Shown in pieces: positions 12,531 to 64,000 of a stretch of DNA of 64,000 nt; within the stretch, counting starts at the first letter, position 1, and each line of letters begins with the position of its first letter. Source of the DNA: Mustelus asterias (taxonomy: Eukaryota); NCBI RefSeq assembly GCF_964213995.1, contig NW_027590469.1, positions 1-64,000 of the forward strand, in the 5' to 3' direction. Under the pieces are notes generated by a model that saw only the letters and a list, made by a program, of their open reading frames with translations, was not told the origin of the DNA and made no database searches. The position numbers and the translations under genes were made by a program.

Positions 12531-12620
12531 ATTGGCAGCTCCGGTGCTAAAATAAAAGCATTAATTTTAATTGTTGTCAGTTGAACCTTCAAGTAACGTC
12601 TAAACTTGTGTTTGTTGAAG

Positions 12621-14127: not shown

Positions 14128-14602
14128 GTGAGCTGAGAGATTGAAGCAACAAATGCGTCACTGTGTCTATTTCCAGTGTAAGTGTAATGGTCAATACTTA
14201 GTATTCAGTGCATTACCACTCCTCTGAGTGGTAACTCTGCTAACTAAACGCTCTGGGCCTGTAGATATTTTTGCGTGGGATGTTGATGAATGAAAAGTGA
14301 TCTGAAGAGAATGGTATTGGTTTATGATCGAATAAGTAGGGAGTAGTCTGGTGTGGTGCACAAAACCCAACGCAGAACAGTTGGGCCGAATAGCCTGTTT
14401 CTGTGTTGTAATCTTTCTGAAACTTTCCAGTCTAGCCCCAGTTATTTGACAAAGCGATTGTGTTCCCCTCTCCTCGAAGCAGGAAGTCAAAAATGGAAAC
14501 ATTTAAATTCGAAAGCAAAGCACAATTTTCTGATATCTAACCAGTGTTTTCATTGTTTGCAGAGTTCTCCAGTTTATTGACATTTATTGCAATTTTCTGC
14601 AG

Positions 14603-14994
14603 ATCCAAATCCGCGGAGACCGTCCGTCTCTGTCCTCCTGCCCTCGGCAGAACAAATATCCGCTCAGAAATTCGTCTCCCTCAGCTGCTTAGTGAGAGGT
14701 TTCTCCCCCCGAGAGGTCTTCGTCAAGTGGACCGTCAATGACCAGCCCGTGAATCCCGGGAACTACAGGAACACCGAGGTGGTGGCGGAGAACGGGAATG
14801 GCTCCTTCTTCATGTACAGCCTGTTATCCATTGCAGCGGAGGAGTGGGCCAGCGGCACTTCTTACTCCTGCGTGGTGGGACATGAAGCCATCCCCTTGAA
14901 GATCATCAACAAAACAGTTGACAAATCCAGCGGTAAACCCAGTTTTGTGAACATTTCTCCTGTACTGGTGGACCCCGTTAGTTCATGTCAATGA
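14603..14994 (+). CDS. IGHM: IgM Cmu4 exon plus secretory tailpiece (...[19 protein letters not shown]|[20 protein letters not shown])
   Basis: Acceptor CAG at 14602; internal membrane-form donor G|GTAAA at 14932/14933; penultimate Cys; AATAAA at 15031-15036. Confidence 0.96.
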
Positions 14995-15156
14995 GAATCT
15001 ATTGGTTATATTTCGAGCTGCAAGAAAAATAATAAAGCTTTTTTCATCTGCTTATGAGTTAAACATCCAACCTGCTAATTCATTTTGATTCCTCTGTTTG
15101 CTATGGGCATAAATGCTCCTCCGACAGCAGATACTTACCAGTGTCTTGCCTCCCTA

Positions 15157-15445
15157 TGGCACAGTGGTTAGCATTACTACTTCACAACACCAAGGACCTG
15201 AGTTGGATTCCTGGCTTGGGTGACTATCTGTGTGGAGTTTACACATTCTCCCCGTGTCTTCGTGGGTTTCCTCTGACTGTTTCGGTTTCCTCCCATAGTT
15301 TGAAAGACGTGCTTTTTAGATGCATTGGCCACGCTAGGTTATTCCCCAGTGTACCCGAACAGGCAACGGTATGTAGCGACTAGGGAATTTACACAGTAAA
15401 TTTATCACAGTGTTAACGTAAGCCTACTGTGACACTAATTAAAAA
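15157..15445 (+). mobile_element. V-SINE
   Basis: TGGCACAGTGGTTAGCA A-box head and V-domain. Confidence 0.85.
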
Positions 15446-17607: not shown

Positions 17608-17925
17608 TGTGGCTCAATCGTTAGCATTGCTGCCTCACAGCTCCAGGGACCCAAGTTGAATTCGATTCTTGGGTGGCTGCCTGTGCGGAGTTTGCGTGCC
17701 TGCATGGGTTTCCTCCAGGAGCTCCCGTTTAATCCCACAGTCCAAAAATGTACAGGTTAATTAGATTGGCCATGCCAAATTGCCCCTTGGCGTCCCAAGA
17801 TGTGAAGGGTATGTGGATTAGCCATGGGACTATTGTGCAGTTATGGAGATAGGGTGGCTAGGTCCAATTTCGGTGAAGACTCGATGGACCGAATGGCCTC
17901 TTCAGCACTGTAGTAATTCCATAAT
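17608..17925 (+). mobile_element. V-SINE (HE1-like)
   Basis: GTTAGCATTGCTGCCTCACAGCTCCAGGGACC head, V-domain, CR1-like tail. Confidence 0.85.
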
Positions 17926-17949
17926 TCTACGACTTGACCAGAGGTCCAA

Positions 17950-19050
17950 TGTGCGTTACTTCAATATTCAAATAGCTGATGTCTGATATTGCCTCTTACT
18001 CCAGTTCCCACTTACTTCTCATATCCTTTATTACCCGATAAACCAAAACTATATCTGCCCCAGCCTTAAAAATATTCAATGATGGGGCATCCACAGTCCT
18101 CTAGGGCAGGCAACTCAGAAGAGTCATATCCCTAAGTGAAGGAATGTCTCCTCATCTCAGCCCTAAACGAGAGCACACCTATTCAAACGCCCGTTATTTT
18201 AAATTCCCCATCCAGAGGTAACAGCATCTCAGTGTCCAACTTGTGAAACCCATTCGGATTATTTTGTCTCAATGTTATCGCCTCCCATTCTTCTAAACTG
18301 AAGAGAATGTAGACCCAAGTTGCTCAGTCCGCGTCAGTTATCTTCAGTCGTTTGGTCTTCATAATATTAGTTACTGATAGTTGGTACAAAATTAAACAAG
18401 ACTAAACGATCGCCTAAGATTAAATAATAAAATATATGTTCAAATACATCTGTTCAAATCCAGTATGAGGAACATATTGGAAGGACGGGTGCGGAATTTG
18501 TAACACAGAAACTAGAAACGGGAGTACGCCTTCGAGCTGCTCCGCCATTCATTTTGAAAATGGCTGATCAACGAATTCAATATCCTGATTCTCGCCCCAC
18601 CCCATATACCTTGATCCATTTAGCCCTAAGGGCTTGAATTCATACATTGTTTTGGCCTCAACTATTTTCTGTGGTAGTGAATTCCATACATTCACCATCT
18701 TCTGGGTGAAGAAATTTCTCCTCACCTCAGTTCAAAAAGGTTTACCTCTTATCCTCAAGCCATGACCGCTAGTTCTGGACTTATCCACCATCCTTCCTGA
18801 ATCTACCCTGTCTCACTCTGTTAGAATTTGATAAGTTGCTATGAGATCCCCTCTCATTCTTCTAAACTCCGGTGAATATAATCTTAACCGACTTAATTTC
18901 TCCTCATATGACAGAACTGCATCCCAGCAATCAGCCTTGTAAAATTTCGCTTTACTCTCTCTATAGCAAGGACATTGTTCGTCAGATAAGAACACCAAAG
19001 CTGCACACAATACTCCAGGTGCGGACCCACCAACGTCCTATATAATTGTA
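17950..19050 (-). mobile_element. Two CR1 LINE 3' fragments
   Basis: Minus-strand translation ...LSYEEKLSRLRLYSPEFRRMRGDLI... Confidence 0.8.
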
Positions 19051-19241
19051 GATTATATTACTGAGAGAGATTAATTTAATAATATATGCATTGACAATTT
19101 TATTAAGCGTTTAAGTTAATAACACATAGGCTTTGAAAAGTATATCAGAGAACAAAATAATACCTTAAGAAGGGAAAATGAATAACCAAAATAATATCCA
19201 TGACGAGAAAAAAAATCTGAAAGTATTCCCTCTCCCCGCAG

Positions 19242-19366
19242 ATTCCACAGAATCCACCTGGATTGAAGACCAGGATGATAACAGCAATATCTGGACAACT
19301 GCTTCGACTTTCATAGTCCTGTTCTTCCTGAGCATGTCCTACAGCGCTGCCGTCACTCTGGTGAAG
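19242..19366 (+). CDS. IGHM: IgM TM1 exon (DSTESTWIEDQDDNSNIWTTASTFIVLFFLSMSYSAAVTLVK)
   Basis: CART-type motif WTTASTFIVLF..S..YS..VT; acceptor CAG at 19241; donor GTGAG at 19367. Confidence 0.95.
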
Positions 19367-19508
19367 GTGAGATGATTCAATCCACCCACATCTGAATCAG
19401 ATAGGAGAGGTTTGAAAAATATCCAGAAGTCTCAATTTAGAAGAGCCTTTAGATAAATGTCTCAAACACATAAAATGGCTGTTGAATTATTTTATTTCTC
19501 TTTTGCAG

Positions 19509-19517
19509 GTCGGGTGA
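19509..19517 (+). CDS. IGHM: IgM TM2 exon (VG*)
   Basis: Polypyrimidine tract plus TGCAG acceptor ending at 19508, GTC GGG TGA, AATAAA at 19569-19574. Confidence 0.8.
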   Translation, partial: VG

Positions 19518-20229
19518 TTGAATTTAGGAAATCTTGTGGTTTTCGCCGTTCACAGTGTGGTGCTGTGGAATAAAAAATACGTTATCATTGTGATCCTCAA
19601 AGTTAATGTGCCTTCAGCGGACAGATTCGAATCCATAACTGAGATAGCAATATCAGCTGGATTTCGTTTTTGTTTCAGTTTAAAATGAATGAGATAATCG
19701 TGTCGACAATATAATTGTAACTTGGAGTTTCACCATTGTTCAAATTAATGTGTAAGTTAGTGGTTATTTCTTATTGAGAATTATTCACCGCCTTTTATGT
19801 GGAGGCCCTGATTTCTTGATTTGATTTGATTTATAGTTGTCACAAGTATTAGCATACAGTGCAAAGTGTTGTTTCTTTCTTTAGTTAATTACAGTTATAG
19901 ACAATTGTCAGTTTAGGCGACAATGTTATGTTCTCACTGTGACGCTCAGTTTGTGTATTCACCTGGGGTCAACTTTAAACTGTATCTTATTGTAAAATGT
20001 TCTCTGTGAAATTTTAAATAAATCTTGAATGACAAATTAAATGACTTAGAAGTTGCTACATGCTGAGCTCCACGGCATAACCTTATCACTCGATTTTCCA
20101 ATCCGAACGCTCCCTCACTCACGACGCCCCTTTCAACCGATAGGGCTTTGTAATTAATCCTGTTTGGATTTTGATCAACCCGACAACACTTCAGTGAAGG
20201 AGCCGCTGCGCCATCCAGTGTCCCAAAAA

Positions 20230-20990
20230 ACAAAGAACAAAGAAAATTACAGCACAGGAACAGACCCTTCGGCCATCCAAGCCTGCACCGACCATGCTGC
20301 CCGAATGAACTAAAACCCCCTACCCTTCCGGGGACTATATCCCTCTATTCTCATCCTATTCATGTATTTGACAAGCCCCTAAAAAGTCACGATCGTATCT
20401 GCTTCCACTACCTCCCGGTAGCAAGTTCCAGGCACCCACAACCCTCTGTGTAAAAAACTTGCCTCGTACATCTCCTTTACACTTTGCCCCTCGCGCTTTA
20501 AACCGATGCCCCCTACTAATTGACTCTTCCACCCTGGGAGAAAGCTTCTGACTATCCACTCTGTCCATGCTCCTCATAATCTTGTCGACTTCTACCAGTT
20601 CGCTCCTCAACATCCGTCGTTCTAGTGAGATTAAACCAAGTTTTTCCAACTTGTCCTCATAGCTAATGCCCTTCATATCAGGCAACATCCTGGTAAATCT
20701 TTTCTGCACCCTCTTCAAAGCCCCCATACCTTCTGGCATCGTGGCGACCAGAATTGAATACTATATTCCAAGTACGGCCTAACTAAGGTCCTATAAAGCT
20801 GCAATATGACTTGCCAATTTTTAAACTCAATGGCCCGGACAATGAAGACAATCATGCTTTATGCCTTCTTGACTACATTCTCCACCTGCGTTGCCACTTT
20901 CAGTGACCTGTGTACCTATGCACCCAGATCCCTCTGCCTATCAATATTCTTAAGGGTTCTGCCAGTTACTGTATAAATCCCATTTGTGTA
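20230..20990 (-). mobile_element. CR1 LINE 3' end
   Basis: [14 protein letters not shown]...YEDKLEKLGLISLERR...FFTQRVVGAWNLLP; (AAAGAAC)n tail on the + strand. Confidence 0.9.
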
Positions 20991-21164
20991 AAGACACCTC
21001 TACATCTGCCTTTTCATATTAAGTGGCAGAAGCAATTGACGAAACAGTCAGCGGGAACACGTTGCTGACTTTATTCAATTATTAATCCGTTACGTTCACA
21101 TATGGGTTTCCATTACAGAGCAGGACTGTGCTGCCTCACAGCCTGACACAATGGAGTATAATGA

Positions 21165-21458
21165 AGCATCTGGTCTTCAGGCTCTGGAAGCAGATGATCA
21201 CAGAACAGTCGATAGTGAAAGCTACCGTCAGCCAAACTGACCCATCCTGTGTTGCAAAGACCAGTATGATGCCCCCTGCACTCGTCAGGGTGGTGGACAG
21301 AACATTGTTAGAAAAGTAGATGCGGCCGACATGGTTGAGGGTGACGGCAATGATGATGATCGGGAAATTGCTCATCGCTATCGGCACCAGGTAGTCGGTG
21401 ATGCACCGGGAGATTCCGTAACGTCCTCGGGATACGATTATAATCACCAACATGTTGG
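21165..21458 (-). pseudogene. Truncated, degenerate exon 2 of a GPR139-like class A GPCR (TM1-TM3)
   Basis: ANMLVIIIVSRGRYGISRCITDYL...SVWLTVAFTIDC is clearly paralogous to the ORF at 47835; same phase-1 acceptor (CTCACAG); DRF motif lost. Confidence 0.85.
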
Positions 21459-22779
21459 CTGTGAGCGATAAAAACATGGAGAGATATCACCGCGCAAACT
21501 CCAAACACCAGCTACTGCCCCATCTAATCTGAATACTTGCTGACAATTCCCTTTGCCAGCTCCAGGTTACAAATCTTCCAAAGCTATTGGTGTTTGTTCT
21601 ATACCCACTGGTGGGTGAAACGTGTCAATATAGTCACCATTCCAATCAGTCCCCGTCACACACAATGCTCTCTGGTTCCTGAATCAATCCAAGGGGCTCA
21701 CTGTGCAGCGGAAGATTATCCGAAACATTTGGTCCCACTGCCTTTATGCAAGCCCATATCAAGCCCCTACTCGCTGATGTGCATTGGCTCCCAGTCTGGC
21801 AACGTCTGCGTTTTAATATCCTGATCCTTTGAATTGTCAATCACCTTCACTGTCTCACCCCTTCCCTCGCTGTTACTTCCTATAACTACCTGAGATCTCA
21901 GCGTATCCACAATCCTGCTCTACTGAGCATCTTTGATATTAATGTCTAGCGATTATGTCTAGTTTTTGAGTATTTCATCTCTGAAATGCTCTCCCTCAAA
22001 ACCTCTGAATTTTCTTCTTGCTTTTGGATGTTTCGTACATGGAAACATAGAAACTAGAAGCAGGAATAGGACAGGGACAATTGCTAAAGATTCAGTGTTT
22101 GAAGTTTCTGGAAGGACAGAACATAACATTGGACTTTAAATACCCGACTGCTGCTCTTCAAACTCTGTACAGGTACATCCAATATCCCCGGCAAGCTCTG
22201 AGATTTTTGATGAAGACATGTAGCTTGGCAATACCGATATGACTCCACATTTCCCAGATAGATTGTCGGCTAATTTACACAAAGGGAACAACACTTTTCC
22301 TTTAAATGTCACTAGAGCTCTTCTTTCTGACACCGTGGTGTATTTCTGTGTCATGGAGCCCACACGGATTTAGCGAACCGCGCACAGAGACCCCAGACTG
22401 GGAGTTCCAGTTAATGATCAGCAGAGGGCGCGCTCAACATGATAAACAGAAACAACAATTCAGTCTCAACAACGAGTGTCACCGAATCATAAAAAAATCA
22501 AAACAAAATATGACACTCAAGAACAGCTGAGCCGCAGTTGGTTTTTAACTTGCAACTATATTAAAAATGCATTGATGCTTAGTTAACAACCCACCTTTAG
22601 TCTTTGCTGATAGTTCGTTGCATGTGTGAATTATTCTCCATCTTCACTCTCCACTTCGAGGTCACTTTGATCAATGGGTCTATTTAGTCAGAGTATTTTG
22701 CTGGCTAAGAGACAAGTTATGTAAAATATATACTTCACAAATGTGTCATAGAACCATAGGACCTGTTTGGGGACTATCA

Positions 22780-37015: not shown

Positions 37016-38505
37016 CCCACTAATCTCACCGTCACTGCTTTCTGAATTAAAGCTATCCCTGCTTCCCGGGCAGTCGAAGAGTTTAGTCCTTAATTCAGAG
37101 AGCAAATGTCTTCTCATTTTGCGCAAGATTTAAAGCAAGACCTGGAAGATTATGTCAGTGGGAACAATAATCATCCTCATTGTCATTCAATCACTCCAGC
37201 CTTACATCCTATCACAAGATCATAAATAGGGTTCTCGCCCTCTATTCTCCCTCACTCTGTATTTGCTCGTAAACTATTAAACCTCTAACTTCTTCCAGTT
37301 TGAATAAAACGTCAGCGACCCGAACCATTCATTCTGTTTCCCTCACCACAGACGCTGTTTGACCTGCTGTTTCCAATATTTTCTGTTTTGAGGTGGGGTT
37401 TGCAGTACCTTCAGTGTCTTTTTTTCTCGTTCAATGTGGATTAGTTTTCTTTGACTGAACTTGACCTGTTTACATCGTCAAAGGGCTGAGGTTTTAAATA
37501 ATAAGATACAAGGATCTGTCACCCTGTTTGACATGAAATGAAACATAAAGAGAATTAATCATTTCAAAAGATGTTACGAATTCAGGATATATTTTGTTGG
37601 GGATCCACCTACTTGTACCATTCACTCACTCATCTGTCCCAATTTAAACAAGAGGTGGGACGGCGAGAGTCCAAACTGCGAAGCGTTACGACATGGAAAT
37701 GATAGCACTCTGACCTATGACACTCGGCCTTTCTCCCAAAACACACACACACACACACTTGCTCAATAATTGCCAATCTCCAGTCGAATTGTTGTTGTGT
37801 GATACCAACTGCTCATTTCTTTCAATAGATGATTTAAAGAGCAGCGAAAGATGAAAAAAAAAACATTGCTGATGCAGGCATCTTTCGCCAGAGACTCAGC
37901 AATGTGCAAGTTGCAGTTTTTGCAGAGAATGACTCTCTTGGCGTCATTGCATCAGGCCCAGAGAACGATTGCTCAAGAATACAAAGCGCTGAGAGTCGGG
38001 GAAGCGACAGTGGGCTTTGTGTCCACCTGGAGGTGTAATTCACTCTGTTATCTGTCCCAATTTAAACAAAAGTTAGGAGGCGAGAGGCCAGAGTGTGAAC
38101 CGTCACCCATTGAATCAACAGCACTCTGATGGAAGACTTTTATCCCAAAACACACACACACCAACGCCCTCTTTCTCTCTCACACACACACACATAGACA
38201 AAGACACACAGGCGCACAGACACACACACACACACACGCACGTAAACACTTGCTCAATAATTGCCAGACTCCAGTCGAATTGTTATTGTGTGACACCAAC
38301 TGTTTCTTTTTTTCAACAGAGGAGTTAAAGAGCAGCGAAAAGATGAAAAACACTGATGTTGCAGGCACCTGGCACCAGAGGCTCAGCAATGTGCATTGTA
38401 ATAGCAGTTGAACTTGCTGACAAATTGTCCTTTCGATTCGTACTTTGTGAGAAATTTAAACAAAATGCCCTTCAGCAAACCAACCATCAGCATTTGCAAA
38501 TTAAA

Positions 38506-38569
38506 GCCGAGTTTTGAACTCGGATTGCTGGATTCAGGGTCCAGAGTGCTCACCATTACACCGCGGACC
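38506..38569 (-). pseudogene. tRNA-Gln(CTG) pseudogene
   Basis: Reverse complement GGTGTAATGGTGAGCACTCTGGACCCTGAATCCAGCAATCCGAGTTCAAAACTCGG. Confidence 0.75.
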
Positions 38570-39727
38570 GCAACACACGGCTACAGGCTGAAAATGGTCG
38601 TTCAATACCTGTGCCAATTTGAACAGTAGAGTGAAATATCAGCCCCAATGCACAATCCCATCAAAAACCCACAGCAATTCATATTTACTTTACCCTTGCT
38701 GGTTCCTCCTGAAAAAAATGAGTAAGCTATCTTCAATATGCTATCTTCAACTGCATTAAATTTCACTGTAGCTCACCACGTTCGAGGAATGTTGGCATCG
38801 AAGTGTTATAAACCTGAGTGTGGTAAAAATTCTGAACAACATCAGCTTGTCACAGCTCTGCTTTGGTCATACTGGAAGCTAGTGTGAAAATATGAACAAT
38901 TTCATATCTTAACAGACTGGAAGGAGTGGGTGACTGTGTTTAATTGGCACTGTGCACATTCCTGTAATCCGTGACTGCGAGATTCAGGAAAATTACATCC
39001 TGCTGGTCTCGTGGCTAGTGTTCGGTGCTTTCGGGGTCACAGGCTGGCTTCGATACACTAAGATTTAATGTTTTTGATAAACAAACTGTAATACTTCCTG
39101 GTCCAAAGCCGCTCTGCCAGAAACGGTGGAGTGAGGTTTGTAGTTTTGCTTCCGAGTTGGAAATGTCACATGGACAAAAGGTCAAAAAGAAACACAGATA
39201 GTGAAGGACAGATATAGGATGAAAAGCGCTGACGATGGAGATGGTGACACTCGGTAAAATCTGGTTGATAATGGGTCAGAATTAACCGTTTGCATTGACA
39301 CAAATTTCATTCATTTCTGGATAAAAATATCGGGCTAAATGATAAGAAAACTTCTCGCTGAATGAAGCACAAAACTATTTGACTTCGACTGATTGCAAGC
39401 AGTTTTCATTCAGAAAGAAGTAACTGTGGGATTAACAAAGCGGGATGGAGAAAGTCTCAGTTTGAGCGGTGAAATTGCCGGAGGAATGGAGAGCTGGAGT
39501 TCACCCATAAAAGCAGCAAAGTATAAAAATATTGGGAACCACTCAATGTTGCCCTTGTCCATCATTCCTTGTGTCAGTTAACCCATCCTGTTATGCTCTC
39601 TATCACAGACCTTCCCTTTTAATCTCTTTATTGAGTGACTCCCATTTTAAATGCCACAAGACCTCAATCAATGTTTCGCGAAAAGCAAGAATAAATCTGA
39701 ATCATTTGAAATTAACCCATTTCGAAA

Positions 39728-47230: not shown

Positions 47231-47834
47231 CTTTTTCGAGCCTGGGAGACGGTGAGAATGTTTTGCGGTTTTAAGGGTATGGTTTTGTCCAATGAGGTTC
47301 TTCACTCTGGTCGGTGTGCGGATGGAGGATTTGTTGCCTTGCTTGCCGTTCCTGTGTCGTGAGCAGTTTTCTCCCGATCGTCTCTCCGAAGAACCCGAAT
47401 GAATTTTTGACATTTGACAAATATTTCGACACGTTTCTCCAATCAACCCTCGTAAGCGAATTACTCCATTCATGGAAACATCAACACCAATATTTTCCAT
47501 ACCCGTTGAAATGTCATCAGACTCCACTAATTGGTTGATTTCGGAAATAGAAACTTTATTAATTCATTACCGTGCACGGTAAAATGTAATGGTAATTGAG
47601 AAGTCAATGCTTGATAAACAGATAATCCATTTTGATGATTAAGAATATACTTCTTCCATCCGTGATGTCTGCCTCCATCTAACGTCCATCTTCATATTAT
47701 TAAATCAGCTGTTGTTTCTTCAGACCCAGAAAATCGCTTCAGATGCAGAAAATAAGAGTCCATGCATTTTGGTCAATGTGATGATATTATTGTGGTTTTT
47801 GCATGTAAGTTAATTCTCCTTCTGTTTAATGCAG

Positions 47835-48745
47835 CTAATTTAGTGGCGATTGTGATCCTGTCAAGAGGAAAGTGTGGTCTTTCGAGATGTATCACTCGAT
47901 ACCTTATCTCCATGAATGTGACAGATCTACTGGTCATTATCACCGCTGTGATATTAAATCGTATCAGTGCCATTTATTTTCCAGGCAGCTTCTTGTCCAT
48001 CACCCCGCTGTGTAGTGTGAGCACAGTCGTAACTTACGCAGCCAGAGTGAGTGCTGTCTGGTTAACAGTCACGTTTACCTTTGATCGCTTTGTGGCAATA
48101 TGCTGCCAGAAATTGAAAATAAAATACTGCACCGAGAAAACTGCGGCTGTTGTGATAGGAACAGTCTGTGCCCTGGGCTTTTTAACCAATATCCCCTGGT
48201 ACTTTATTCACGAGCCTATTTACATGGTTGACAATGTGCCCTGGTATTGCAAACTGAAGGATATCCGGTATACTTCACTGCTATGGACAGCATATGACTG
48301 GTTTGATTGTATATTGACCCCGTGTGCTCCGTTCCTTCTAATTCTCCTGTTCAACGCTCTGACAGTCAGACATATTCTAGCAGCCAGTAGAGCCAGGAGG
48401 AGACTTCGTACAGACAATGACGGAAAGAATCAGACTGACCCTGAGATGGAGAGCCGGAGAAAGTCCATCATTTTACTCTTCACAATCTCTGGCAGTTTCA
48501 TCCTGTTGTGGATGACATATGTTATACAGTTCTTGAATGTGCGAATCACAAACGATTATAACATTAAAAGCTTCAGTGATCCCAAATTCATTCTCCAGGA
48601 ATCTGGGAACATGCTGCAGCTTCTTAGTTCCTGCACCAACACCTTTATTTACGCAGCCATCCAGAAGAAATTCAGAGAAGAATTGAAAAATGCTCTCCAA
48701 TGTCCACTGAACCGAATTAGTAAACTAACTATTCCGAGAAAATAA
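47835..48745 (+). CDS. GPR139-like class A GPCR exon 2 (spliced protein about 326 aa, intact)
   Basis: Acceptor TGCAG at 47834; ANLVAIVIL, DLL, WLTVTFTFDRFVAIC, NIPW, FILLW, NTFIY; seven hydrophobic segments; AATAAA at 48817. Confidence 0.92.
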
Positions 48746-51225: not shown

Positions 51226-52859
51226 TACCATTACCAAACGGGGATCGCTTGATCGTCAGTCAGATGTTCGACCACTGAGCTCTTAGTTAAGAGTCTAAGG
51301 CTCCTCAGTTAGCAGTCTGCGCTTAGGTCCGTCATGTTCTTGGTCCACCGTGGAGGAAGCTCGAGGGGATAGTTTCTATCCCGCATTCTCTCACAATTAC
51401 TGGTTTCTCTATGGAGTCGGAGAGTTTAGTGTTTCATTCACCGAGAAGTTTTCTTATCATTTGGCTGAGACTTGAATCCACATCTAGGTGATATTTAAGG
51501 AAGAACAAGGTGATATTTAAGGAAGAACAAAGAAAACTAGAGGACAGGAACAGTCTCTTCGGCCTTTCAAGCCTACCAACAATGCTGCCCGTCTGAACTA
51601 AAGCCCCCTGCCCTTCTGGGGAACATATCCCTCTATTCCCATGCTATTCATGTGTTTGTCAAGGCATCCCTTAAAAGTCACTAGCGTATCTGCTTCCGCT
51701 ACCTCCCCCGGTGGCAAGTTCCAGACAACCACCACCCTCTCTATTTGTGAGTTTGCACCATTGCCACCCAGATTTTACCAAGCATTACCATCTTTACCAT
51801 CAGCTTTTTGAAGTCTATAACTGTCCTTCTCTTTCCCTGCTTGTTAATGACCTGTGTCCCAAGTGGCGAAATGCCACTCAGACACGAAACTACAAATCTC
51901 ACATCACTGAATCGGGCAGAGCTGTTTTCACTCAGGAACCAATTCACTTTTGATTAACAGGTTATCCAAAACATTAAATCTTAGTATATCGAAGCCAATC
52001 TTTGACCCTGAAAGCACTGAACCCTAATCATTCGACCAGCAGAATCTCATCTTCCTGATTCTCCAAGACACTGATTACAGGAACGTGCACAGTGCCAATT
52101 ATACACAATCACACACTCCTTCCAGTCTTGTGCACGTTGTTACAATTTGATCTTGTTCATCTTTTGACATTACGCCCAGTGTGACGAAAACAGAGAAGTG
52201 AAAATCTAATGTTGTTCAACAGATGCATCACAATAAACTTTCCAACAGGTTGATGCTAACATTGCTCCTTGAATATGGTCAGCTCCAGTTACAGTTAATG
52301 CAGCAGAAGGCAACATACTTATTTTGAAAGGAGGAAGCAACAAGGACAATAGCAATATGAATTGCTGTGGGTAATTGAGAAATGGGGCTAACTTTTCTCC
52401 CTGCTGTTCAAACTAGCACAAAGATCTCTCCTGGTATCGATCGGATGTAATTTCAGCTCTTCTAAATTCCTGTGCTGCATGAGACCAGTCAATTGTTAGC
52501 CCCTGACTGGGAATCGAACGCGGGCCTCGGGTCTGGCGATTATTGAGCCAATGTGTGTTTGTATGTATGGATGTATTTTGCGAGAAAGATCTTGCTGCCT
52601 TGTTCCTGACCTCCATCAGTTCCATGATGTAACGGTGAGATCACTGCACATTGATTGCAGGCAGTGTTGTTCTCGTCTTCGCACCTCTTGTTTAAATTGG
52701 AATAGACGAGTGATTGAAAGACAGCTGTAAGAGGACCCACTGCCATCTGTGGCTTCTCTACCTCTGAGCATTTTTAACGAATTAGCCATTGTCCTCTTGG
52801 GCTGATGCAGAGATGCCAGGAGAGTCATTAGCTGCATCGCCTGCAATGTGATTCACAGA

Positions 52860-53880
52860 TTCACGGAATCACAGGATATTACAGTGTCGAAGTGGCCTTT
52901 CGGCTCATCGAGTCTGCAGCGACGCATGAAAGGCCCTGACCTGCCCACCTAATCCCATTTGCCAGCAATTGTCCCATAGACTTGGATGTTTTGGCTTGCC
53001 GAGAAAAAAAATCCAGCTCTTTTTAAAGGATGTGAGGGATCCCACCTCTATCACCCTCCCAGGCAGTGCATTCCACACTGTTACCACACTCTGAATAAGA
53101 AAAATGTTTTTCCTCACATCCCTCCCCCCAAACCTCCCGCTCCTCACTTTTAGATTGTATCCCCTCGTTACTGACCCTTCAACAAAGGGGAATAGCTGCT
53201 CCCTATCCATCCTGCCCATGCCCCTCATAATCTTGAACATCCCAATCAGGTCGCCCATATTCTCTGCTCCACTGAAAACAATCCAAACCGATCCGATCTT
53301 CTTTTGAACTTAAATGTTCCATCCCAGACAACATCCTGGTGAATCTACTGCACACCTTCCAGTGCGTTCACGTCCTTCGTATAATGTAGCGACCAGAACA
53401 GCAGATGGTACTCCAGATGTGGCCTCGCCAAAGCTCTATACAACTCCATCATGACCTCTCTGCTTTTGTAATCGAAACCCCGACTGATAAAGGCGAGTGT
53501 GTCTCCTACTTTTTCGCCACCTATTAACCTGCCTTTCTGCCTTCAGAGATCTGTGGACAAACACGCCAAGGTCCCTTTGTTCTTCCGAACTTCCTGGCGG
53601 CATTTCTTTCATAGCATACTTCCTTGTCAAATCACTCCTCCCAAAGTATATCACCTTACACTTTTCAGTGTTAAATTCCATCTTCCACTTATCTGAGCAT
53701 TTGACCACCTCGTCTATATCTTCCTGTAACTCAAGACACTCAAACACACTGTTAATCACTGGCCAAATCTTTCTGTAATCGGCAAACCGACTGATTCTAC
53801 ACGTACCGCCCCCCCCCGCCCCCCCCCCCCCCGACCACATCACATAGTCATCTATGTCATTTCGATAAATGACGAACAAT
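52860..53880 (-). mobile_element. CR1 LINE 3' fragment
   Basis: ISRFAD...WKMEFNTEKCKVIYFG...RDLGVFVH. Confidence 0.85.
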
Positions 53881-53984
53881 AGAGGAATTTCCTGAAGTTT
53901 CCTGAGTGCTTATATTTCTACTTTCTGAGGATTGAAAAAAACCTTGAGCAAACAAATTTAGCAAAGAAAACCAAAGTTGAATGG

Positions 53985-56620
53985 GAATTTGAAGTCGGAT
54001 CGTTGGATTCCGAGGTAAGACTGCTTACCAATTCACCGCAGAACCCAAAACGCAGGAGCCAGCTGGAAATGGGGAATCAAACAATTTGACCTCTTTCATT
54101 CAATGTTGCAGCAACAGCAAGTGCGGCAACATGTCGTTATGCGCCACCATTGACATGCGCAAAAAACTCTCAAGAAACTGCCCCCCAAATCCACAGCAAA
54201 TCATTTCTTCCCAAGCCGTATCGGGAGATATCAGAAGAAATAGCCATGTCTCAAAGGGTCAAATGCCGTGCATTAGTGTCATACAGATGCGGCCCATCGG
54301 CCCTTCGCGTCTGCACCGGCCAAGCAACCAGCTCGCCAATATTTGTATCATCTGCAAACTTACTGATGAAGCCTCCTGCAATAAAAATCTAAACCATTCA
54401 TATAACTCACAGATGCAAGGGCCCCAGCAGTCATCCCTTTGTGACCATCTGGACATTGGCTTCCAGTCTGAAAAACTGCCCTGGAATATCACCCTCTGTT
54501 CCCTGTCACTCAACCAATTTTGGATCAATCATAGCAAAATTCCTGGGATCCATCAATGTTGTCACACTTACTGTTTCTGCCACATTGAATGAAAGAGGTA
54601 AAATGCTTTGAGTGGTCATTTGCTGTTGGGTTCTGTGATGTAACTGTGAGCATTCTGAACTTTGAATCTAGTGATCCGTGTTTAAGTCTCCGCGGAACCT
54701 TGTTTTTTTTTGCCAATGTTGATGTCTGATTTGCTGATGAAGATTTCGTCTAATTTTCTCACACAGTACAAATAGAGAGGACAATTTGTCAGCCAGTTCA
54801 ATTGCCTTTACAATTTACATTGCTGAGCCTCTGGTGCCAGATACCTGCAATATCAATGATTCTCCAACTTTTCACTACACGTTAACACCTCTGTTGAAAG
54901 AAATAAGCAGTTGGTGTCAAACAACAACAACCACTCGACAGGAGCCTGGCTATAATTGAGCATGTGTGCGTGTGTGTGTGTGCATGTTTTGGGAGAAATG
55001 CCTCGTGGTTTAGGCACGGGCCATGTCGATTCCATTCTGTAACGGTTAGCACTCTGCACTTTGTATCCAGCAATCCGAGTTTGAATCTCGGTGGAACTAG
55101 GATTATTATCGTCCCAACTCTTGTTTAAATTGGGAAATGTGACTCAGTGAATGACACCAGTAGGGTCAACTCCCACCCTCTCTCGCTTTTCTGGCATTGT
55201 GGCACAATGGTTAGCACCGCTGCCTCACAGTGTCAGGCACCGCGGTTCAATTCTGGTTTCGGGTGAAACCACTATCCTCATCGTTCCATCGCTTATTGAG
55301 ATTGGGACACCAGTCGGGGACCCCTGCTCTCTGTGGTTTCTCTGCCGTGGAGCTCTTTTATTCTTGAGCAATCATCCTCCAGAAACCGTACAGTGCAGGA
55401 AGAGGCCATTTGGCCCATCGAGCCTGCACCGACCACAATCCCACCCAGGCCCTACCCCCATAAATTTACCCACTAACCCCTCTAACCTACGCATCTCAGG
55501 ACACTAAGGGGCAATTTTTGAATGGCAAATCAACCTAACCCGCACATCTTTGGACTGTGGGAGGAAACCGGAGCACCCGGAAGAAATAACGCCAGGAGAG
55601 TCATTCGCTGCATCGTCTGCAATGTTATTGGAGTGGAATTTGCTGAAATTTCCTCTCAGTTTAAAATTCCACTTCCTGAGAATTTTACATAAATGGCCTT
55701 CAGCAAATCAATCATCAGCTTTAACAAGGAAAATAAAATGTTTCACTGAGATCTGAACTTCGAGCACAGGATTCGGATTCCCGAGTGCTCACCATTACAC
55801 CACAGAACAAAGAACACTGCAGCCAATGCATGTGACCTCTTTCATTCAATGTGGCAGCAACAACAAGTGAGTCAATTGATTTGTGTGACCATTTGCAGGT
55901 GGTTGCTATGTTCCAGGTTCTCTGGTCGAATGATGAGCACTCTGAACCCAGCGAACCGAGTTTAAATTTAGGCAGATCCTTGCTTTTCCTTGCTTTTGCT
56001 GAGGATTGATTTGTTGAAGTACATTTTGTTTACATTGCACACAGAGTACGAATCGGGAGGACAATCTTTCAGCCAGTTCAACTGCTATTACAATTCACAG
56101 TGCTGAGCCTCTGGCGACAGATCCTTGCAACATCAATGCTTTTCTTCAGCTTGTCGCTACTCTTTAACTCCCCTTTTGAAAGAAAGGAGAAGTTCTTGTC
56201 ACAAAACAACAACTATTCGACTGGAGGCTGGCAATTATCGAGCAGTTGTGTACGTGTGTTTTGTTGTGGGGAAAGGTCTAATGTCTCAGGTTAGAGTGCT
56301 GTCAGTTCTATGGTGCAACGGTTCACACTCTGTATTCCCGCTGTCCCAACTCTTGTTTAAAGCGGGACAAATGAGTAAGTGAATGACACCTGTTGGTGGA
56401 CTCCCTTCCATCTCTGGGCTCTCTGCCTCTGAGCGCTTTGTATTATTGAGCAATTGTTCCTTGGGCTGATGCAATGACGCAAGGAGAATCATTTGCTGCA
56501 TTGTCTGCAATGCGATTGTGGTGAAATTTGCTGAAATTTCCTCAGACTTTAATATTCCACTTTCTGAGAATTTTAAATTAAATGTCCTTCAGCAAACCAA
56601 CCTTCGGATTTAGCAAATAA
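53985..56620. repeat. Array of tRNA-Gln-bearing local duplications in both orientations (relics near 53985, 54630, 55030, 55740, 55910, 56305)
   Basis: For example 55030-55098 TTCCATTCTGTAACGGTTAGCACTCTGCACTTTGTATCCAGCAATCCGAGTTTGAATCTCGGTGGAACT; flanks shared with 37620-38600. Confidence 0.75.
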
Positions 56621-56703
56621 AGCAAGATTATGGAAAAGACTAATCATGAACAATCTTGTGCGGATAACACATGAGCCAAACCGTAACAAAATAGTTCAAT
56701 TAC

Positions 56704-56959
56704 CAGTAATCACAGTCAGCAAGGTGCTACCTCCACAGTGCTCCGGGTTCATGAGCCATGAATTTGTACACGGTCTGCAGCAACACGCGCCACTGTCTTC
56801 AACTTTTAGATTCTTGATACGCAAAGAAAATGCATGTTCTCTTTTTTTGACCGATTCCACACTGCGCCGGCCAATCGATATGAAATCCCGGCCTTTTGAG
56901 CCAGGCGGTGTCCAAGACGCATAGGTGCAGTAGAGTGGCTTGGAACCATTAAAGACATA
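56704..56959 (-). pseudogene. 5'-truncated, already-joined NAR-type (IgNAR or NARTCR) V(D)J exon
   Basis: ISIGRRSVESVKKREHAFSLRIKNLKVEDSGACCC-RPCTNSWLMNPEH-CGGSTLLTVIT followed by phase-1 donor GTAATT; matches the VNAR pattern ISIGGRYVESV...FSLRI.DL.VEDSGTYYC...GGGTxLTV. Confidence 0.85.
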
Positions 56960-57375
56960 GGGCCCGATTTTACCATTTAGAGACGAAGTGCCGGGTGCAA
57001 GCGTCAAATAGACCCGAGCCCGGAGGCCGCGCTCCAGCGCGCCCATGCGCATTTTTTCGGCGCCGGTCCAGTGGGCGGGGCTTAACGCCGCCGGAACGAT
57101 CTGACAGAACGCCCCCGGGCGCGAAAGAAATGCAGACATGGAGAGAGCCTCTCTGCCGTTCATCCTCTGGTCGGGGGGGGGGAGGGGGGGGGGGAGGGGA
57201 GGCGGGGAAGGGGTGTGAAGTATCATCCCCTGGGGAGGGTGGGAGGGGAGGGGGTGTGACTTATCATCCAGTGGGGTGGTGGGAGGGGAGGGGGTGTGAC
57301 GTCTCATTCCTGGGGAGGGGGGGTGGGGGGGGGGTACCCAACCTCCCCCGCCCCAGGGGAATCGCGCCAGTCCGC
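56960..57375 (+). mobile_element. GC-rich interspersed-repeat end (possibly a non-autonomous PIF/Harbinger element) with three tandem units of about 40 bp
   Basis: Begins GGGCCCGATTTTACC exactly where the NAR-like V is cut; GGGGTGTGA..CATCC units at 57205-57320. Confidence 0.35.
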
Positions 57376-60300
57376 TAGGGTGCACAAGTCTGCTGTTATG
57401 TCTGGGTCAATCAGTACCCCTAGGGGCACTTCAGGTGTGGACAAGGCACTGGGCTGTAGTGTGGTAGGGGTAAGGGTCTGGTCTGAACCTGAAAGTGAAT
57501 GAGAAGGTGTCCGAGGAAATACATTTCCTGGGTGGGGTCATTCCGGTCGCCTCGTGTCATCCTCCCCTATCTCTATTGAGAGATGGTGGAAGTGATTATT
57601 CTGAGTCCCGTAAGCTTCAGTTGATTGACGTGGAACCAACCAGTTTTCCCCTTGGTGATTAGGACTTTATACGCTGAGGGGCTTATTTTTTCGACGATGG
57701 TGTGCTGACCTGCATATCTCGGGGACAAGAAAGAACTGGGGTTGTTGAGGGAAATCATTACCTGCTGGCCAACTGTATATTCTATCGGGTGTACCCTTTG
57801 ATCGAAATATGCCTCGCTCTGTTTCTTTTTAACTCCTCGTCGGACAGCCGCGGCTAACTGTGCTGCTTTAATGTTTTCGGTTAGCTGCTGGACGGCTTTC
57901 TCGTGGGTAGGCTGTGATAGCAGGCTCAGTTAAGTCAAACCCCAATAAATATTCAGCTCCCCTCATAGGTCGGCCAGTCATTAATATGTGGGGGGTGAAT
58001 CCAGTAGAACTGGAAACGGTGTTATGTACCATCATGAGGGCAAAGGGAAGTACTGTATCCCATGTTGTGTTGTTTTGCTGCAGTGTCTTTCTAATGATCC
58101 CTTTTAGTGTTCGGTTCATGCGCTCTACGATTCCACTGGATTGTGGATGGTAGGCGATATGGAATTTCTGCTTAATACCAAATATAGCCATAACGTTCTG
58201 CATCACTCGCCCGGTGAAATGTGTCCCTTGGTCGGACTCTATGCTGCGGGGAAGACCCGAGCGTGTCAACACCTGCTGGGCTAATAACTTTGCGGTGGCC
58301 TTAGCTGTGTTGGACCTCGTGGGGAATGCCTCGACCCATTTGGTGAAAGTGTCTATTATTACCAGAACGGATTCAAATCCATTCCTACATGGCGGTAGTG
58401 GGCCGATATAATCAATTTCGAGATTTGTCCAGGGGCCTTCTACTGGGCTTAGCTCCTCTTTTCTGGCATCCCGATCAGGGTTGTTCTGGGCACAAAGTAA
58501 ACAATTGTCGATATAATAGGCAACATCATCGTGCAGTTCGGGCCACCAACATAATTCTTTTAATCGCTCGGTTGTTGCCTTGATGCCCTGATGGCCGTAT
58601 CCGTCATGGTATGGTAGATGAGTTGATTTCTGTCCTGGGTATGGGATACGTATGTGCCTGCTTTTAGTATCAAACCATCCTGAATCTGTATTTTGTCTTT
58701 CCACTTCTCATATGGAGCTGGGTAGACTCCTAAAATTTGTTGAAGGGAACTGTCAGTGCACTACGCCTGGACCAGGTCAGCTATATTAGTTTGGCAAATG
58801 GTCACAGCGCTTACTCGCTCTCCGACAGGTGGCTGCCAAAACTGTCCCGTACCAGCACCGGCTTTGGCTAAGGCATCAGCCTTACAGCTACCAGGTGGGG
58901 AGGTCCTAAGGTGGCTTCTAACCTTAATGAGTCCACATGTCCGCCCTTCGGTGGCCTGCAGAACGTATTTTAATAAGTGGGCTGACGGTAGGGGCTTTCC
59001 GTCCGCAGATACGAAGCCTCTGGCTTCCCATAACGGTAGGAATTCAGTCAGGCTGTTGCACACGTACATGCTATCGGAGTGTATGTTGGCAGGGGTTGGA
59101 AATAGGTCAGAGTGACTCACTACGTATGTGACTGCTGCTAGTTCGGCAGCTTGAGCACTCAAATGGCTGGGTAGCTTGAGGGCGAGTCCTATTAGTGGAT
59201 GTCCCTGTTGATTTTCTACATTAATGCCACATCCTGTCATTCTGGTCCCATTCTTAATGGTGGATGAACCGTCTACATAAATTCTCATGGCTGAGTCTGT
59301 CCGGAGGTGGCTGTTTGTTTTGTCCCTGATCGTCTCTCCTGTTGTTTTGGAATGAACGGACCTGTGGGGTCCTTTGTTTCTCTAACCTGACACTCATGCG
59401 GATCTCCCACATAACTTAAATTATCTGCCAGGAACGTGGGCACCTTAGTTCGCTTTACAGTGATGTCCCTCCCCTGGAGTAGTAGTGTCCAACGGGCAGC
59501 GCGGACCTGGCGTACTGAGCCATCTTTAAGGTGGCCATCCAGCAGAAGCTGTGTTGGGGTGCGTTCAGTGAGGATGGTTATTGGGTTCAGTCCGATGATA
59601 TAGGCGAAATGCTGTACGGCCCAAAATACCATGAGCAGGTGTCGTTCACACCCGGAGAAGCCCTGTTCGACTGGGTCCAATACTCGTGAGTCATCGGCTA
59701 CAGGGCCTGGTCTATCATGTTTTTCTTGTAATAATGCTGCTGAAAGTGTGTGGTCGGTGGCTGCAACTTCTAAGGCGTATGGTAGATCTGGGTCAGGGAC
59801 TAGTAAGGCTGGCGCTGTGGCGAGGGCGCGCTTTAAATCGGTTGCTGCAGCTGTGTGCTGCACAGTACACTTCCAGATCGCGTTTTTCTTTAGCAATTCG
59901 GAAAGTGGGGTTGCCTTGGTGGCGAAGCCGTCTATATGGTTCCGACATTACCCTACTAGACCTAGGAAAGATCGGAGGGCACTCAAATCTCGGGGCAGTG
60001 GATGGTGTACTATGGAGTCTATCGTTTTCTGTTCAATCTCCCTCTTCCCATGGGTAATCACTGTACCCAGGTATATAACCTCGGGTTGCAAACTTTTGGT
60101 CTTTTTGGGGTTGACTTTGCAGCCTAATGAGTGGAGCAGTGCGAGTAATTCATCCAGCAATGTTATATGTTCCGCTTCGGTGTTTGTCTGTAACAATAAA
60201 TCATCCACATATTGGATCAAGCACTCGGGTCGGGAAAACGTTTCTCGTCCGGTAGCTAGTCGCCTGTGAAAGATGGACGGGGAATTATGGAAACCCTGTG

Positions 60301-63300
60301 GGAAGCAAGTCCAAGTGTATTGCTGTCGTTGGAATGTAAAGGCAAATTTGTACTGGCAAGACCGATTTAAAGGGATGGACCAGAAGCCGTTACTAATATC
60401 TAGCACCCTTTAAAACTTTGCCTGGGCTCCCTGTCTCATCATGGTGACGGGACATGTGGTTACTGTGGGGGCCATGAGTGGGGTAACCTTATTTAATTCC
60501 TGGTCGTCGACCGTTAACCTCCATGATCCATCTACCTTCCTCACGGGCCATATCGGCGCATTATTTGTGGATGCCACTCGTATCAAATCCCCCTGCTGTA
60601 ATAGACTATCAATTACTTTGGCCACCTCCCCCTCTGCCTGTCTGTGGAAACTGTATTGTCTCTGTGGTTTCGGATCCGGTCCTTCAACTAACATCTCCCC
60701 AGGAATCTGGCCACAATCATGTTTGTGCCGCGCAAACACCCCATTGTTTCTTTGAAGCACCTCGCTGACGGCTGGATCACTGCTAATCATTAAGGGATCA
60801 AACCAAAATTTCCCTATTGTGCTAACCCTATTAGCATATGTCCCGGCTGGGATTATTGATGGCGCTCTGCTAATCGTAGTCAACTGCCAAATGCATCGAT
60901 TAGCTGGATCGAATGAAACATTACATTTATTGATATAATCGGACCCCAGGACGTGTTCAGCACTTAGGGGAAGGTCAACTAACACTACCGGATGGTCACA
61001 CACCATGATACCTAGACGGACCTGTACAGGGCTTATAATGCATCCCTCTTGCATGTGTCCTTTGAACCCACTGAGTGTAATTGTGCCCGTAGTTGGCCAA
61101 GGGATGTGTATTTTTAATTTTGATACATTTAGAAGCATTGAAACATAGAAACACGACAGCACTATACAGGCCCTTCAGCCCGTAAAGTGTGCCAAACATG
61201 TCCCTACCTTAGAGATTACTGGGCTTATCTATAACCCTCGAGCGTACTACGTTTAGGGTAGTTCGGGAGCCTCTGGTATCCCAAAGGAATGGCCTCTTAC
61301 ATCGCCGTTAACTAGCGGTCTCCCTACACTATCCCACCTGGTGCTACAGATCCAGGTTGGGGCGGCCGGGCACCGTGAATCTGGGGTTCAATAGGCAGGG
61401 ACAGTTGCATACAGTGATGGCCTCGTGCTTAAGGTATGCACGGGGTGCCGGGACCTTCCATTGGTGGTGGGCGGTGTTCTCTCTCATGCCGAGGAGCTGC
61501 CCTAACTGGTGGAACCGGTGGTCCTGGTCGTCTCAGGGACCATGTATATGGTGGCGGGGGTCTCCTACAATCTCGAGCAAACTGCCCTGGCTGCCCGCAA
61601 TTAAAACATAGATAGAACATAGAACAGTACAGCACAGAACAGGCCCTTCGGCCCACGATGTTGTGCCGAGCTTTATCTGAAACCAAGATCAAGCTCTCCC
61701 ACTCCCTATCATCCTGGTGCGCTCCATGTGCCTATCCAATAACCGCTTAAATGATCCTAAAGTGTCTGACTCCACTATCACTGCAGGTAGTTCATTCCAC
61801 ATCCCAACCACTCTCTGCGTAAAGAACATACCTCTGATATCCTTCCTATATCTCCCACCACGAACCCTATAGTTATGCCCGCTTGTAATAGCTCCATCCA
61901 CCCGAGGAAATAGTCTTTGAACGTTCACTCTATCTATCCCCTTCATCATTTTATAAATCTCTATTATGTTTCCCCTCAGCCTCCTCCGCTCCAGAGAGAA
62001 CAGCCCTCGCTCCTTCAACCTTTCCTCATAAGACCGACCCTCCAAACCAGGCAGCATCCTGGTAAACCTCCTCTGCACTCTTTCCAGCGCTTCCACATCC
62101 TTCTTATAGTGAGGTGACCAGAACTGCACGCAATATTCCAAATGTGGTCTCACCAACGTCCTGTACAGTTGCAGCATAACCCCACGGCTCTTAAATTCCA
62201 ACCCCCTGTTAATAGAAGCTAACACACTATAGACCTTCTTCACAGCTCTATCCACTTGAGTGGCAACCTTTAGAGATCTGTGTATCTGTCTGTGTACCTC
62301 TGTGTATGTTTGTGTATGTCTGTGTATCTCTCCCTGGGGCTGCTGTGTAAGGTGGAGCTGTACCTCTCTGATTTGGTGATCCCCTCTACCCTCGTTTCCC
62401 CATACTGGACCCTGGCTAGCCCTCATCGGAAGCATTCTCACCTCGCTTTCTGACCGTGACATTGGGTTTCCCTGAACTTCCTGTTCCCAGACTCGAGCTA
62501 AGCGTCAGATAACCCATGTTTTATTGTGTGTGGTCACTGCGGGGTCAAAATTAACGCAGGCTTTCTTGCCTTCCTCTTTGGTGGGCGAGACTACTGTCCT
62601 AGCCCATTTGGATTAATCAGCTTCATTTAATCTTGCCCGATCTAATTCGCCATACACTCCTGGTGAAGTGGATCTATAAACGACCGGCAATGGCAGTCGG
62701 ATGCTCCACTTTCCTGTGTCTACATTTATTTAACCGTTCTACAGGAAACCCTTTATTAAACCCTATCGCGGTCAATATCGCTTCCTGAATTTCGTCTGAG
62801 GTATCTTCCCCGACATTTTGAGGGGCTGGCAGGGCAGACCGTACAGACTTGCTTAAGCACATGACTATCAGATTCACCTCTTCCCTTTCATCTCGCTCAT
62901 GCATTAACTTCTGCTGCCTCACGTCCTCAAAGAAACTGTGTGGATCAGCCGAAGGCTCAAAGGTTGTGATTTTATTTGCGACTTCGGCCAATTGTGCCAC
63001 GGTAAATGGGGTTGTATGTAACGGCTGGGGCCTGAGACTCTCCGAACCGAAGTTCAGCCGTCACTGGATGCATCGGTACTGGAGGTGAATCTGGGTGCAC
63101 AGTGGGTATGACTTGCCCTGGGAAAGATGGTGGTGGACCCCAATCCTCGGTTTGCATAACGTAAAGGATAGCATTCTCCTTTAACTCTCCCCAACCCGCA
63201 TTCTCTATCTCCTCTTCCTCTACTGTCCCGAAGGTTCACATAAATCCGTTCTGAACGGATAATAGGGATTCCAGCCCTGAAACTTCTCGCTGGCATTTGG

Positions 63301-64000
63301 AGTGGTCAGCGGTTGCCTGTCTCTGTTCTTTACTGGCTTGATGTAGCGCTTTTAGTGCCGCCTGCAGATCAGTGCACTTAGCTTCCAATCGTGCTACTGC
63401 CTGATCGGCTTCACCTTTGGCCAAGACAGCACGCTGTGCGTCTTGGTAGGCTCTCTCATACTGGGTTTGAAAATTACCCAGTTGTAATAAATTTGCCTGG
63501 TTGGTTCTCCTTAATTCATCCACCTCTCTGTCCTTTTAGGATCTCATCTGCTCAATCTTCTCCTGTTGTTGTTCCTTTAGTTTCTTAAACTCCTCCTCCT
63601 TTTCCTCCTGTGCTCACTTCGACTCCTCCAGTTCCTTACGAACTGTGTTTAACTCCTTTTCTGTTCCGAGCAGCTGAACAAAGCAGCTCACAATAGCAAT
63701 TTCTTTCTCACTTTTATCTGCCCGTTTTCCCTGAACATTCCTTAGATCATCCCAATCCTTCTGCCCTCGGGATCCCCGTCCCATCTCAGTATTGGCACAA
63801 GATTCTGCCCATAGAGGCCACCCTTTCGTCTTAATAAATTCCCTGATTTTTGCTTCCCATATGGGACACTTCTCTCTCTCTGTGCTGTTTCCTGCCATTC
63901 TATATTCAACGACAAGGGGTAGGGAGCTGATTGGACTGTGGGTACGGCTTTGGGCTATGTTCCGGTCCTAATCCCTCCGTATTCTAATGTAAACCTACAG
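57376..64000 (-). mobile_element. Degraded retrovirus-like LTR element (gag-pol: CCHC, protease, RT, tether RNase H, second RNase H, integrase)
   Basis: CFNCGQPGQFARDC; FLWDTRGS; LDISNGFWSIPL...PQGFHNSP...YVDD; PVADDSRVLDPVEQG; IYVDGSS...AQAAELAA...SDSMY; IDYIGPLP...SDQGTHFT...VERMNRTLK; many frameshifts and stops. Confidence 0.9.
61610..62285 (-). mobile_element. CR1 3' end nested in gag of the LTR element
   Basis: [19 protein letters not shown]...LERVQRRFTRMLPGL; a second short CR1 tail near 61135-61240. Confidence 0.92.

Follow-up and report, generated by a model that had tools for sequence, protein, structure and literature searches.

The window analyzed here is the whole 64,000-nt stretch of Mustelus asterias DNA (contig NW_027590469.1, positions 1 to 64,000). 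RSS and exon matches delineated an IgM cluster on its plus strand (652-14994), composed of a leader, a V, one D, a J, and C-mu 1-4 with the secretory tail. The V has a perfect RSS with a 22-nt spacer at 1136, the D (1502-1514) has 12/12 spacers, and the J has a 23-nt spacer. By the usual spacer convention, the single D and the V- and J-side spacers are consistent with a V-D1 germline join, which is how the original prediction had described this cluster. C-mu3 contains an in-frame stop at 14022, suggesting that the cluster is a pseudogene. Its J-C intron holds four 66-nt repeats spaced 389-707 nt apart (2250-4045, family D11) and a degenerate 20-nt purine-rich tandem array (9795-10371, families D1 and D2). 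Searches for V genes also detected a TCR alpha/delta-type V relic on the plus strand (22111-22385), frameshifted and with a decayed RSS-like end, which the original prediction had not listed. It is the only TCR V in the window and lies 34 kb from, and on the opposite strand to, the exon described below. The presence of this relic beside IgM suggests that the window belongs to a region of mixed IgM and TCR V genes, comparable to the antigen receptor complex in the literature. Other genes in the window include a single-exon rhodopsin-family GPCR of 329 aa (47756-48745, plus strand; Pfam 7tm_1, E = 1e-20), a weaker GPCR-like piece that is similar by eye and has no Pfam match (21136-21486, minus strand), and a hAT-like transposase remnant with weak matches to zf-BED and DUF4371, in which 529 open codons are followed by a stop (25826-27739, plus strand).

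A NAR-type exon lies on the minus strand near the right end of the window. The ORF list and translation gave 85 open codons at 56959-56705, as originally predicted; the frame that hosts them measures 236 aa from stop to stop, and its upstream part is repeat DNA. PDB alignments (best score, 47.2 bits with 4hgk) and a comparison with sequencing contigs defined an IgNAR-type V remnant at 56777..56959, which spans the first-Cys column (now Tyr), CDR1, FR2, HV2, HV4 and the second Cys, and has neither FR1 nor leader. It continues in frame into a joined CDR3 of 12 codons (36 nt; 56741..56776; 12-13 residues), in which translation and contigs revealed no RSS. The J/FR4 (56704..56740; alignment, contigs and pattern scan) reads H-C-G-G-S-T-L-L-T-V-I-T plus one G, and is the sole site of a loose J-like pattern among the 127,996 six-frame codons of the window, in frame and 14 codons beyond the second Cys. 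The FR3, CDR3 and J that had been read from the sequence were confirmed exactly by translation. The exon stops at 56704, rather than at the border of 56696 first proposed, and the phase-1 GT donor that had been recognized occupies 56703-56702, with a weak +5 base. Together with the donor, 82 nt of unique J intron are left (56622..56703), as delimited by a depth step and loose contig ends at 56621, where repeats begin. Downstream of the J, a composite repeat of about 1.2 kb is arranged in tandem (52671-56621); it recurs in inverted orientation at 37599-38580, and a tRNA-like part of it (54629-54700, 31.7 bits) suggests a SINE.

Part of the stretch was found in nine of ten listed sequencing runs, and no RNA run carrying it was among the ten. 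Contigs of four runs (X1, X3, X4 and X5) were aligned at 80% likeness; X1, X3 and X4 are from one study of organism A, and X5 is from another study, of organism B. Among the contig data listed, the comparison covered 40 of 103 variant rows, 32 of 578 pieces and 24 of 150 loose ends, with variants assigned to contigs by matching depth sums. These contigs and the PDB alignments revealed how far the exon has degenerated. The core Trp and the Tyr-Tyr pair are gone, as predicted, with Ala at the Trp column and Cys-Cys at the Tyr-Tyr column; of the canonical Cys-Trp-Cys core, the first Cys has become Tyr and the Trp Ala. The Cys-to-Cys spacing is 60 steps in the window copy, which is one short because 3 nt are missing at 56946. 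Record 6 of X1, which has the same junction with the mobile element described below, retains these 3 nt, giving 61 steps, the register of VNAR 4hgk. The 60 residues counted in the original prediction are those of the shortened copy. Five extra Cys are present (residues 11, 59, 60, 64 and 75), in line with those noted near CDR1, in CDR3 and in FR4. However, two paralogous contigs keep Tyr at residues 59, 60 and 64, so that these three Cys read as Tyr-to-Cys decay, and the idea that the Cys pattern marks a new VNAR type was dropped. Cys75 has no listed difference in the best-covered paralogue and probably goes back to the ancestor; type I VNAR has a comparable Cys in FR4, a known feature according to the available text of PMC12907318. 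Ser78 in the J is private to the window haplotype, the other aligned contigs having Gly. An AlphaFold model of the single exon sequence had a pLDDT of 41.8 and was set aside.

The class of the exon was assigned from bit scores and motifs. At E ≤ 0.01, 27 of 30 PDB matches were named NAR or VNAR, the other three being named "nanobody" or "antigen receptor", and the alignments extended from CDR1 through CDR3 into FR4. VNAR 4hgk scored 47.2 bits, and the first conventional V, a VH, 19.5 bits. From CDR1 to the second Cys, the alignment with 4hgk was gap-free, with 30 identities in 59 positions as counted by eye, and C' and C'' are deleted, which is the short, CDR2-less form. The exon thus shares its short spacing and its FR3 and J motifs with VNARs such as 4hgk, 7spp and 2i24, but differs in being joined in inherited DNA and in having no leader, FR1, first Cys, core Trp or C exons. 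Because the V sequence and spacing fit IgNAR while an intact core and C exons are lacking, it was classed as an IgNAR-derived pseudogene and not as a functional member. A search of representative proteins returned 14 matches, mostly multi-Ig repeats and one NARTCR model, and the ESM Atlas yielded V-set clusters (0.91-0.92) and a V-NAR cluster (0.89), which we regard as a lead only. Word-seeded protein searches with the exon produced no candidate at 47-153 aa and no scoring entry among 27 at 154-2000 aa, which is weak evidence that the searched protein collection holds no intact paralogue protein; a metagenome scan for the CDR3 pattern had no match.

No non-rearranging VJ-type IgSF exon, the kind of match that the original prediction had set itself against, scored best; IgNAR V domains did. 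A primordial VJ exon that was never split, of the UrIg/UrIg2 kind, is nevertheless conceivable at this place, since the accessible part of PMC12227049 describes UrIg2 as a gene whose VJ is one exon and which lies in linkage with IgH and TCR-alpha/delta. Such a gene would be expected to have a VJ of conventional length, a split leader and C1 exons, whereas the domain here has NAR length and spacing and no C exon, and the top 30 PDB matches are shark single-domain V. No UrIg entry was among the best 60 of 90 PDB matches at E ≤ 10, although the structures searched may include none. In addition, V-only contigs with 85-87% identity (X1 record 5 and X5 record 32) cease to fit at the V end, as relatives with another 3' continuation would. 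We therefore consider a never-split VJ exon extremely improbable.

NARTCR provided a closer competitor. The comparison set consisted of 54 NARTCR-type models from several sharks and a ray, namely P0003, a horn shark gene model with the NARTCR architecture (NAR V, J and a second V), and 53 models retrieved with it; Table S1 of PMC12227049 names one member, LOC121270138, as NARTCR. The best single domain in this set scored 29.8 bits against 47.2 bits for the VNAR, a comparison to be read with the set having been drawn with one family's sequence, so that IgNAR-like NARTCR families may be absent from it. Motifs present in the exon were rare in the models (FSLRI, 0/54; [EK]DSG, 0/54; R-x-VE[ST], 2/54), and motifs general among the models were missing from the exon (F[SWT][LM][EKQ], 54/54; J DG[SPT]G, 48/54). 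An extra FR1 Cys was present in 52 of the 54 models; the exon has no FR1 to compare. As a whole, the scores and the FR3 and J motifs point to an IgNAR-type V.

The alternative would be a joined NARTCR V(D)J of a family nearer to IgNAR than those sampled, with its supporting V-delta lost. The combination of IgM, a TCR V relic and a NAR V resembles the white shark NARTCR stretch more than an IgNAR block, and a C exon is not expected beside a NARTCR V. Moreover, NARTCR V of the joined kind are likely to exist: Table S1 of PMC12227049 has a white shark entry "NARTCR V(gj)V(gi)V", and also an entry "IgM (gj)", and four models from two lamniform species, the white and basking sharks (P0016, P0029, P0030 and P0041), have one near-identical CDR3, suggesting that a conserved germline-joined NARTCR V lineage may be real in lamniforms. 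The white shark "NARTCR V(gj)" is like the exon in being a joined NAR-type V among IgM clusters and TCR V (Table S1, PMC12227049); NARTCR motifs and a following V-delta of the supporting type set it apart (P0016, linked to the entry by name and species only). On the minus strand of the window, a profile of 49 sequences detected no supporting V-delta, and the exon has IgNAR-type FR3 motifs, no DGSG-type J, and the score difference given above. A loose end of organism B at 56791 belongs to a related V whose hand-read end, Tyr-Cys-Lys-Ala-Gln, fits IgNAR or NARTCR. A NARTCR origin is accordingly unlikely, though it deserves more weight than the other rivals.

The absence of constant and further variable genes around the exon had been noted in the original prediction, and was borne out. 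Profiles and tblastn found no IgNAR C1-C5 in the window, only C-mu 1-4 on the plus strand, with the proviso that C-mu-based queries may miss very decayed exons. Profiles built from 51 NARTCR V and 49 other V domains revealed no further V downstream on the minus strand.

At the joint itself, V, CDR3 and J are contiguous with the RSS removed. No complete RSS was present in 56560-57000, the best match there having 4 mismatches and starting with GAC, in accordance with the claim that none lies inside the exon. A perfect lone heptamer that had not been noted (sense CACTGTG, 56740-56734) is spelled by the first 7 nt of the J/FR4. It raises the possibility that a deletion fused a V end to the DNA upstream of an unrearranged J, in which case the apparent CDR3 would be RSS spacer. 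A perfect heptamer is expected by chance at about 0.7% per 45 nt, given its frequency in the window, and this one is apparently kept in the paralogue X1 record 2 (no listed difference). However, it has no nonamer, the positions at 21 and 23 nt showing 6 mismatches each, and it reaches into the first Gly codon (-1 nt); the heptamer of the IgM J in the window, by contrast, lies 17 nt before the core. Among the NARTCR models, heptamer-like read-through occurred at 13 of 52 junctions, 6 residues before the core in all 13, and where it occurs the join in the RefSeq model is likely a gene-model artefact, so that a RefSeq NARTCR model does not in itself prove a germline join. The open frame, a CDR3 of normal length and an FR4 Cys known from type I (PMC12907318, in the text available) also argue against a fused spacer, an account that we regard as very improbable. 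The CDR3 gave no convincing match to the D core and spacers of the window's IgM. IgNAR V, D or J segments in unrearranged form with their RSS were not encountered, and the supplement text of PMC8692893 and PMC11641339 contains no germline IgNAR J/RSS sequence.

The joined CDR3 was crossed without internal gap by contigs from all four aligned runs: X1 records 1-4, X3 records 9 and 11, X4 record 18 and X5 record 25. X1 record 1 matches without a difference over 56560-56981; X1 could be the very sample from which the assembly was made. X3 record 9, from another sample, covers 56577-56883 with 2 differences and a 19-nt deletion in the intron, and X4 record 18, from a third, covers 56673-56984 with 7 differences. 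The contig of organism B, X5 record 25, covers 56560-56946, including CDR3, J, intron and the downstream repeat, and is 93% identical (28 differences and 3 gap letters in 386). It has the window letter at residues 31, 38, 58, 59 and 64 and at donor +5, where the paralogues are canonical. Because these six letters are kept and the downstream repeat is shared, record 25 was taken to be the orthologue; it also has a stop codon of its own at residue 75. Of the 13 coding differences listed for it, 9 are replacements and 4 are silent, against a neutral expectation of 77% replacement (p = 0.35), so that in this test, which has low power, they appear compatible with neutrality.

These data speak against a join confined to lymphocyte-derived reads, on which the original prediction was to stand or fall: the join recurs in three samples from organism A and in one from organism B, with differences at the level of haplotypes. 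Given the variant haplotypes in the samples and an orthologue with common lesions, the join is inherited in the germline and older than the split of A and B, and the window copy was already decaying before that split. Somatic rearrangement in lymphocyte DNA, or a misassembly, could draw on the fact that no single aligned contig covers the entire 481-nt stretch; it would have to produce the same join with distinct variants and common inactivating lesions in three samples and a second organism, and is scarcely credible. An excess of A-to-G changes on the sense strand was considered as a trace of hypermutation or RNA editing of a source transcript; this was dropped because several of the sites are CpG and the tandem change at residue 33 took two steps between the species.

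The 5' side of the exon, reported to be cut by an insertion, borders on mobile DNA. A GC-rich, high-copy MITE-like element (56960..57370, the right border being approximate), recognized from a summed depth of 8,800-20,600 at 56951-57001 in the contig comparison, adjoins TA at the Tyr codon, and its two ends are unlike. Beyond its far end, neither a TA duplication nor FR1 was found. Record 25 has 128 bases beyond 56946 that do not fit, and X5 shows no depth over 57002-57040; the MITE-like element was therefore probably inserted in lineage A only. The expected place of the 5' half of the V gene is occupied by the interior of a broken Ty3/Gypsy-like LTR retroelement on the minus strand (57371..64000; domain matches to RT, RNase H, integrase and SH3), which continues past 64000 and for which no LTR pair is present in the window. 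Since FR1 does not resume past the far end of the element, the 5' half of the V gene is either deleted or more than 7 kb away. With no leader, FR1, first Cys, core Trp or C exon in 56 kb, the window copy is predicted to do nothing today.

The exon also has relatives. At least three further joined sequences in X1 cross the CDR3 gap-free. Record 2 (56666-56788, 15 differences in 123 nt) has Tyr-Tyr, Tyr64, Gly78 and a GTAAG donor; its Leu81 is altered, and 48 letters at 56788 do not fit. Record 4 (56732-56883) has 17 differences in 152 nt and a 2-nt insertion that shifts the frame. Record 3 (56698-56918) is 80% identical (44 differences in 221 nt), with Tyr-Tyr and Gly-x-x-Tyr restored at the listed sites and an intron of its own; its CDR3 may be common by descent or only equal in length. 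Some of the joined X1 contigs could be alleles, and contig depth gives no copy number. Since several copies exist, the exon may have reached its present place by duplication, and the joining itself may have taken place elsewhere.

Taken together, the exon is probably what remains, as an isolated pseudogene fragment, of an IgNAR V(D)J that was fully joined in the germline, formed once by RAG in a germ cell, then duplicated and decayed. In an ancestor, RAG active in a germ cell or in the early embryo would have brought the V, D(s) and J of a single IgNAR cluster together in frame, and the joined exon would then have been duplicated with adjoining DNA in the IgM/TCR-V region. Loss of the C exons and decay of the window copy would have preceded the split of organisms A and B; in lineage A, the MITE-like element would have inserted at a TA in the mutated codon of the first Cys, with the 5' half deleted or displaced. 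We infer the order of duplication and loss. RAG is the presumed agent by analogy with nurse shark light-chain joints, which, in the portion of PMC2193156 available, have their RSS removed and contain P bases. The donor rules out a plain processed retrocopy, as the original prediction had argued in favour of a DNA-level join, but that argument does not reach a cDNA-guided replacement. The join might thus have been copied from RNA, by cDNA replacing a split gene through homologous recombination or by insertion of an unspliced transcript, a route proposed for the marsupial V-mu-j in the available part of PMC7615758. Merely 82 nt of intron are left and a leader intron is absent from the window, which would suit such a route; however, the J continues into intron and not into C1, this intron is common to the paralogues and the orthologue, and the joined light-chain genes of sharks show RAG-type joints (PMC2193156, same portion). 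Copying from RNA is in our estimation quite improbable.

A search of the literature, conducted largely outside the subscription journals in which much of shark Ig genomics appears, found no fully germline-joined IgNAR. The consulted portions of PMC7677710, PMC11641339 and PMC12907318 do not mention a full IgNAR join. For IgNAR, the excerpts available of PMC4622739, PMC9720397 and PMC8692893 report fused or pre-joined D only, as in nurse shark type III D1-D2 and bamboo shark IgNAR2, 5 and 6. Such clusters resemble the exon in having recombined in the germline inside an IgNAR cluster, but they are joined only D to D and still rearrange, whereas the exon comprises V, CDR3 and J in one. In sharks, IgM clusters that are partly or fully joined are well established, as are joined light chains (PMC5192425, PMC4279169, PMC3308330 and PMC3149040, each in part). 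The IgM1gj/VDJ clusters and the light chains (NS4 R4/R7 and lambda) are like the exon in having an inherited in-frame joint, with RSS removed, that is stable across individuals; the joined genes are ascribed to germ-cell RAG, and expression early in life is described where they are intact. They differ in their V family, and the window copy is dead with no C region in view. The marsupial TCR-mu V-mu-j is likewise an invariant germline-joined V exon, but it is VH-derived, has a structural role and is attributed to retrotransposition (PMC7615758, in the part available).

A fully joined IgNAR exon would mean that the IgNAR isotype, too, can be pre-assembled whole in the germline, and the orthologue in organism B allows the event to be dated, with the ensuing duplication and decay still in view. 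The window copy alone is a dead fragment, of little interest beyond its record of the event; what is valuable is its paralogues. The product of an intact ancestor or paralogue would be an antibody that needs neither a light chain nor somatic recombination and whose binding site is fixed. One paralogue may be intact, with none seen so far among the aligned contigs; as its single fixed domain would be the entire binding site, the role proposed for germline-joined antibodies, to protect pups against conserved targets, would be testable with one small recombinant protein. It is possible, but on balance doubtful, that one ancient germline join founded a multi-copy IgNAR family in at least two shark species with at least one intact member, for which X1 record 3 would be the candidate. 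The product would then be a single-domain antibody that is invariant and independent of RAG, corresponding within IgNAR to neonatal IgM1gj, and its unvarying CDR3 would lend itself to expression and to screening for a conserved ligand. The contig of X1 record 3 is 1082 nt long and extends 792 nt further upstream, and X3 record 12 has an upstream overhang of about 160 nt; FR1 is expected in both overhangs, and that of record 3 should also hold the leader.
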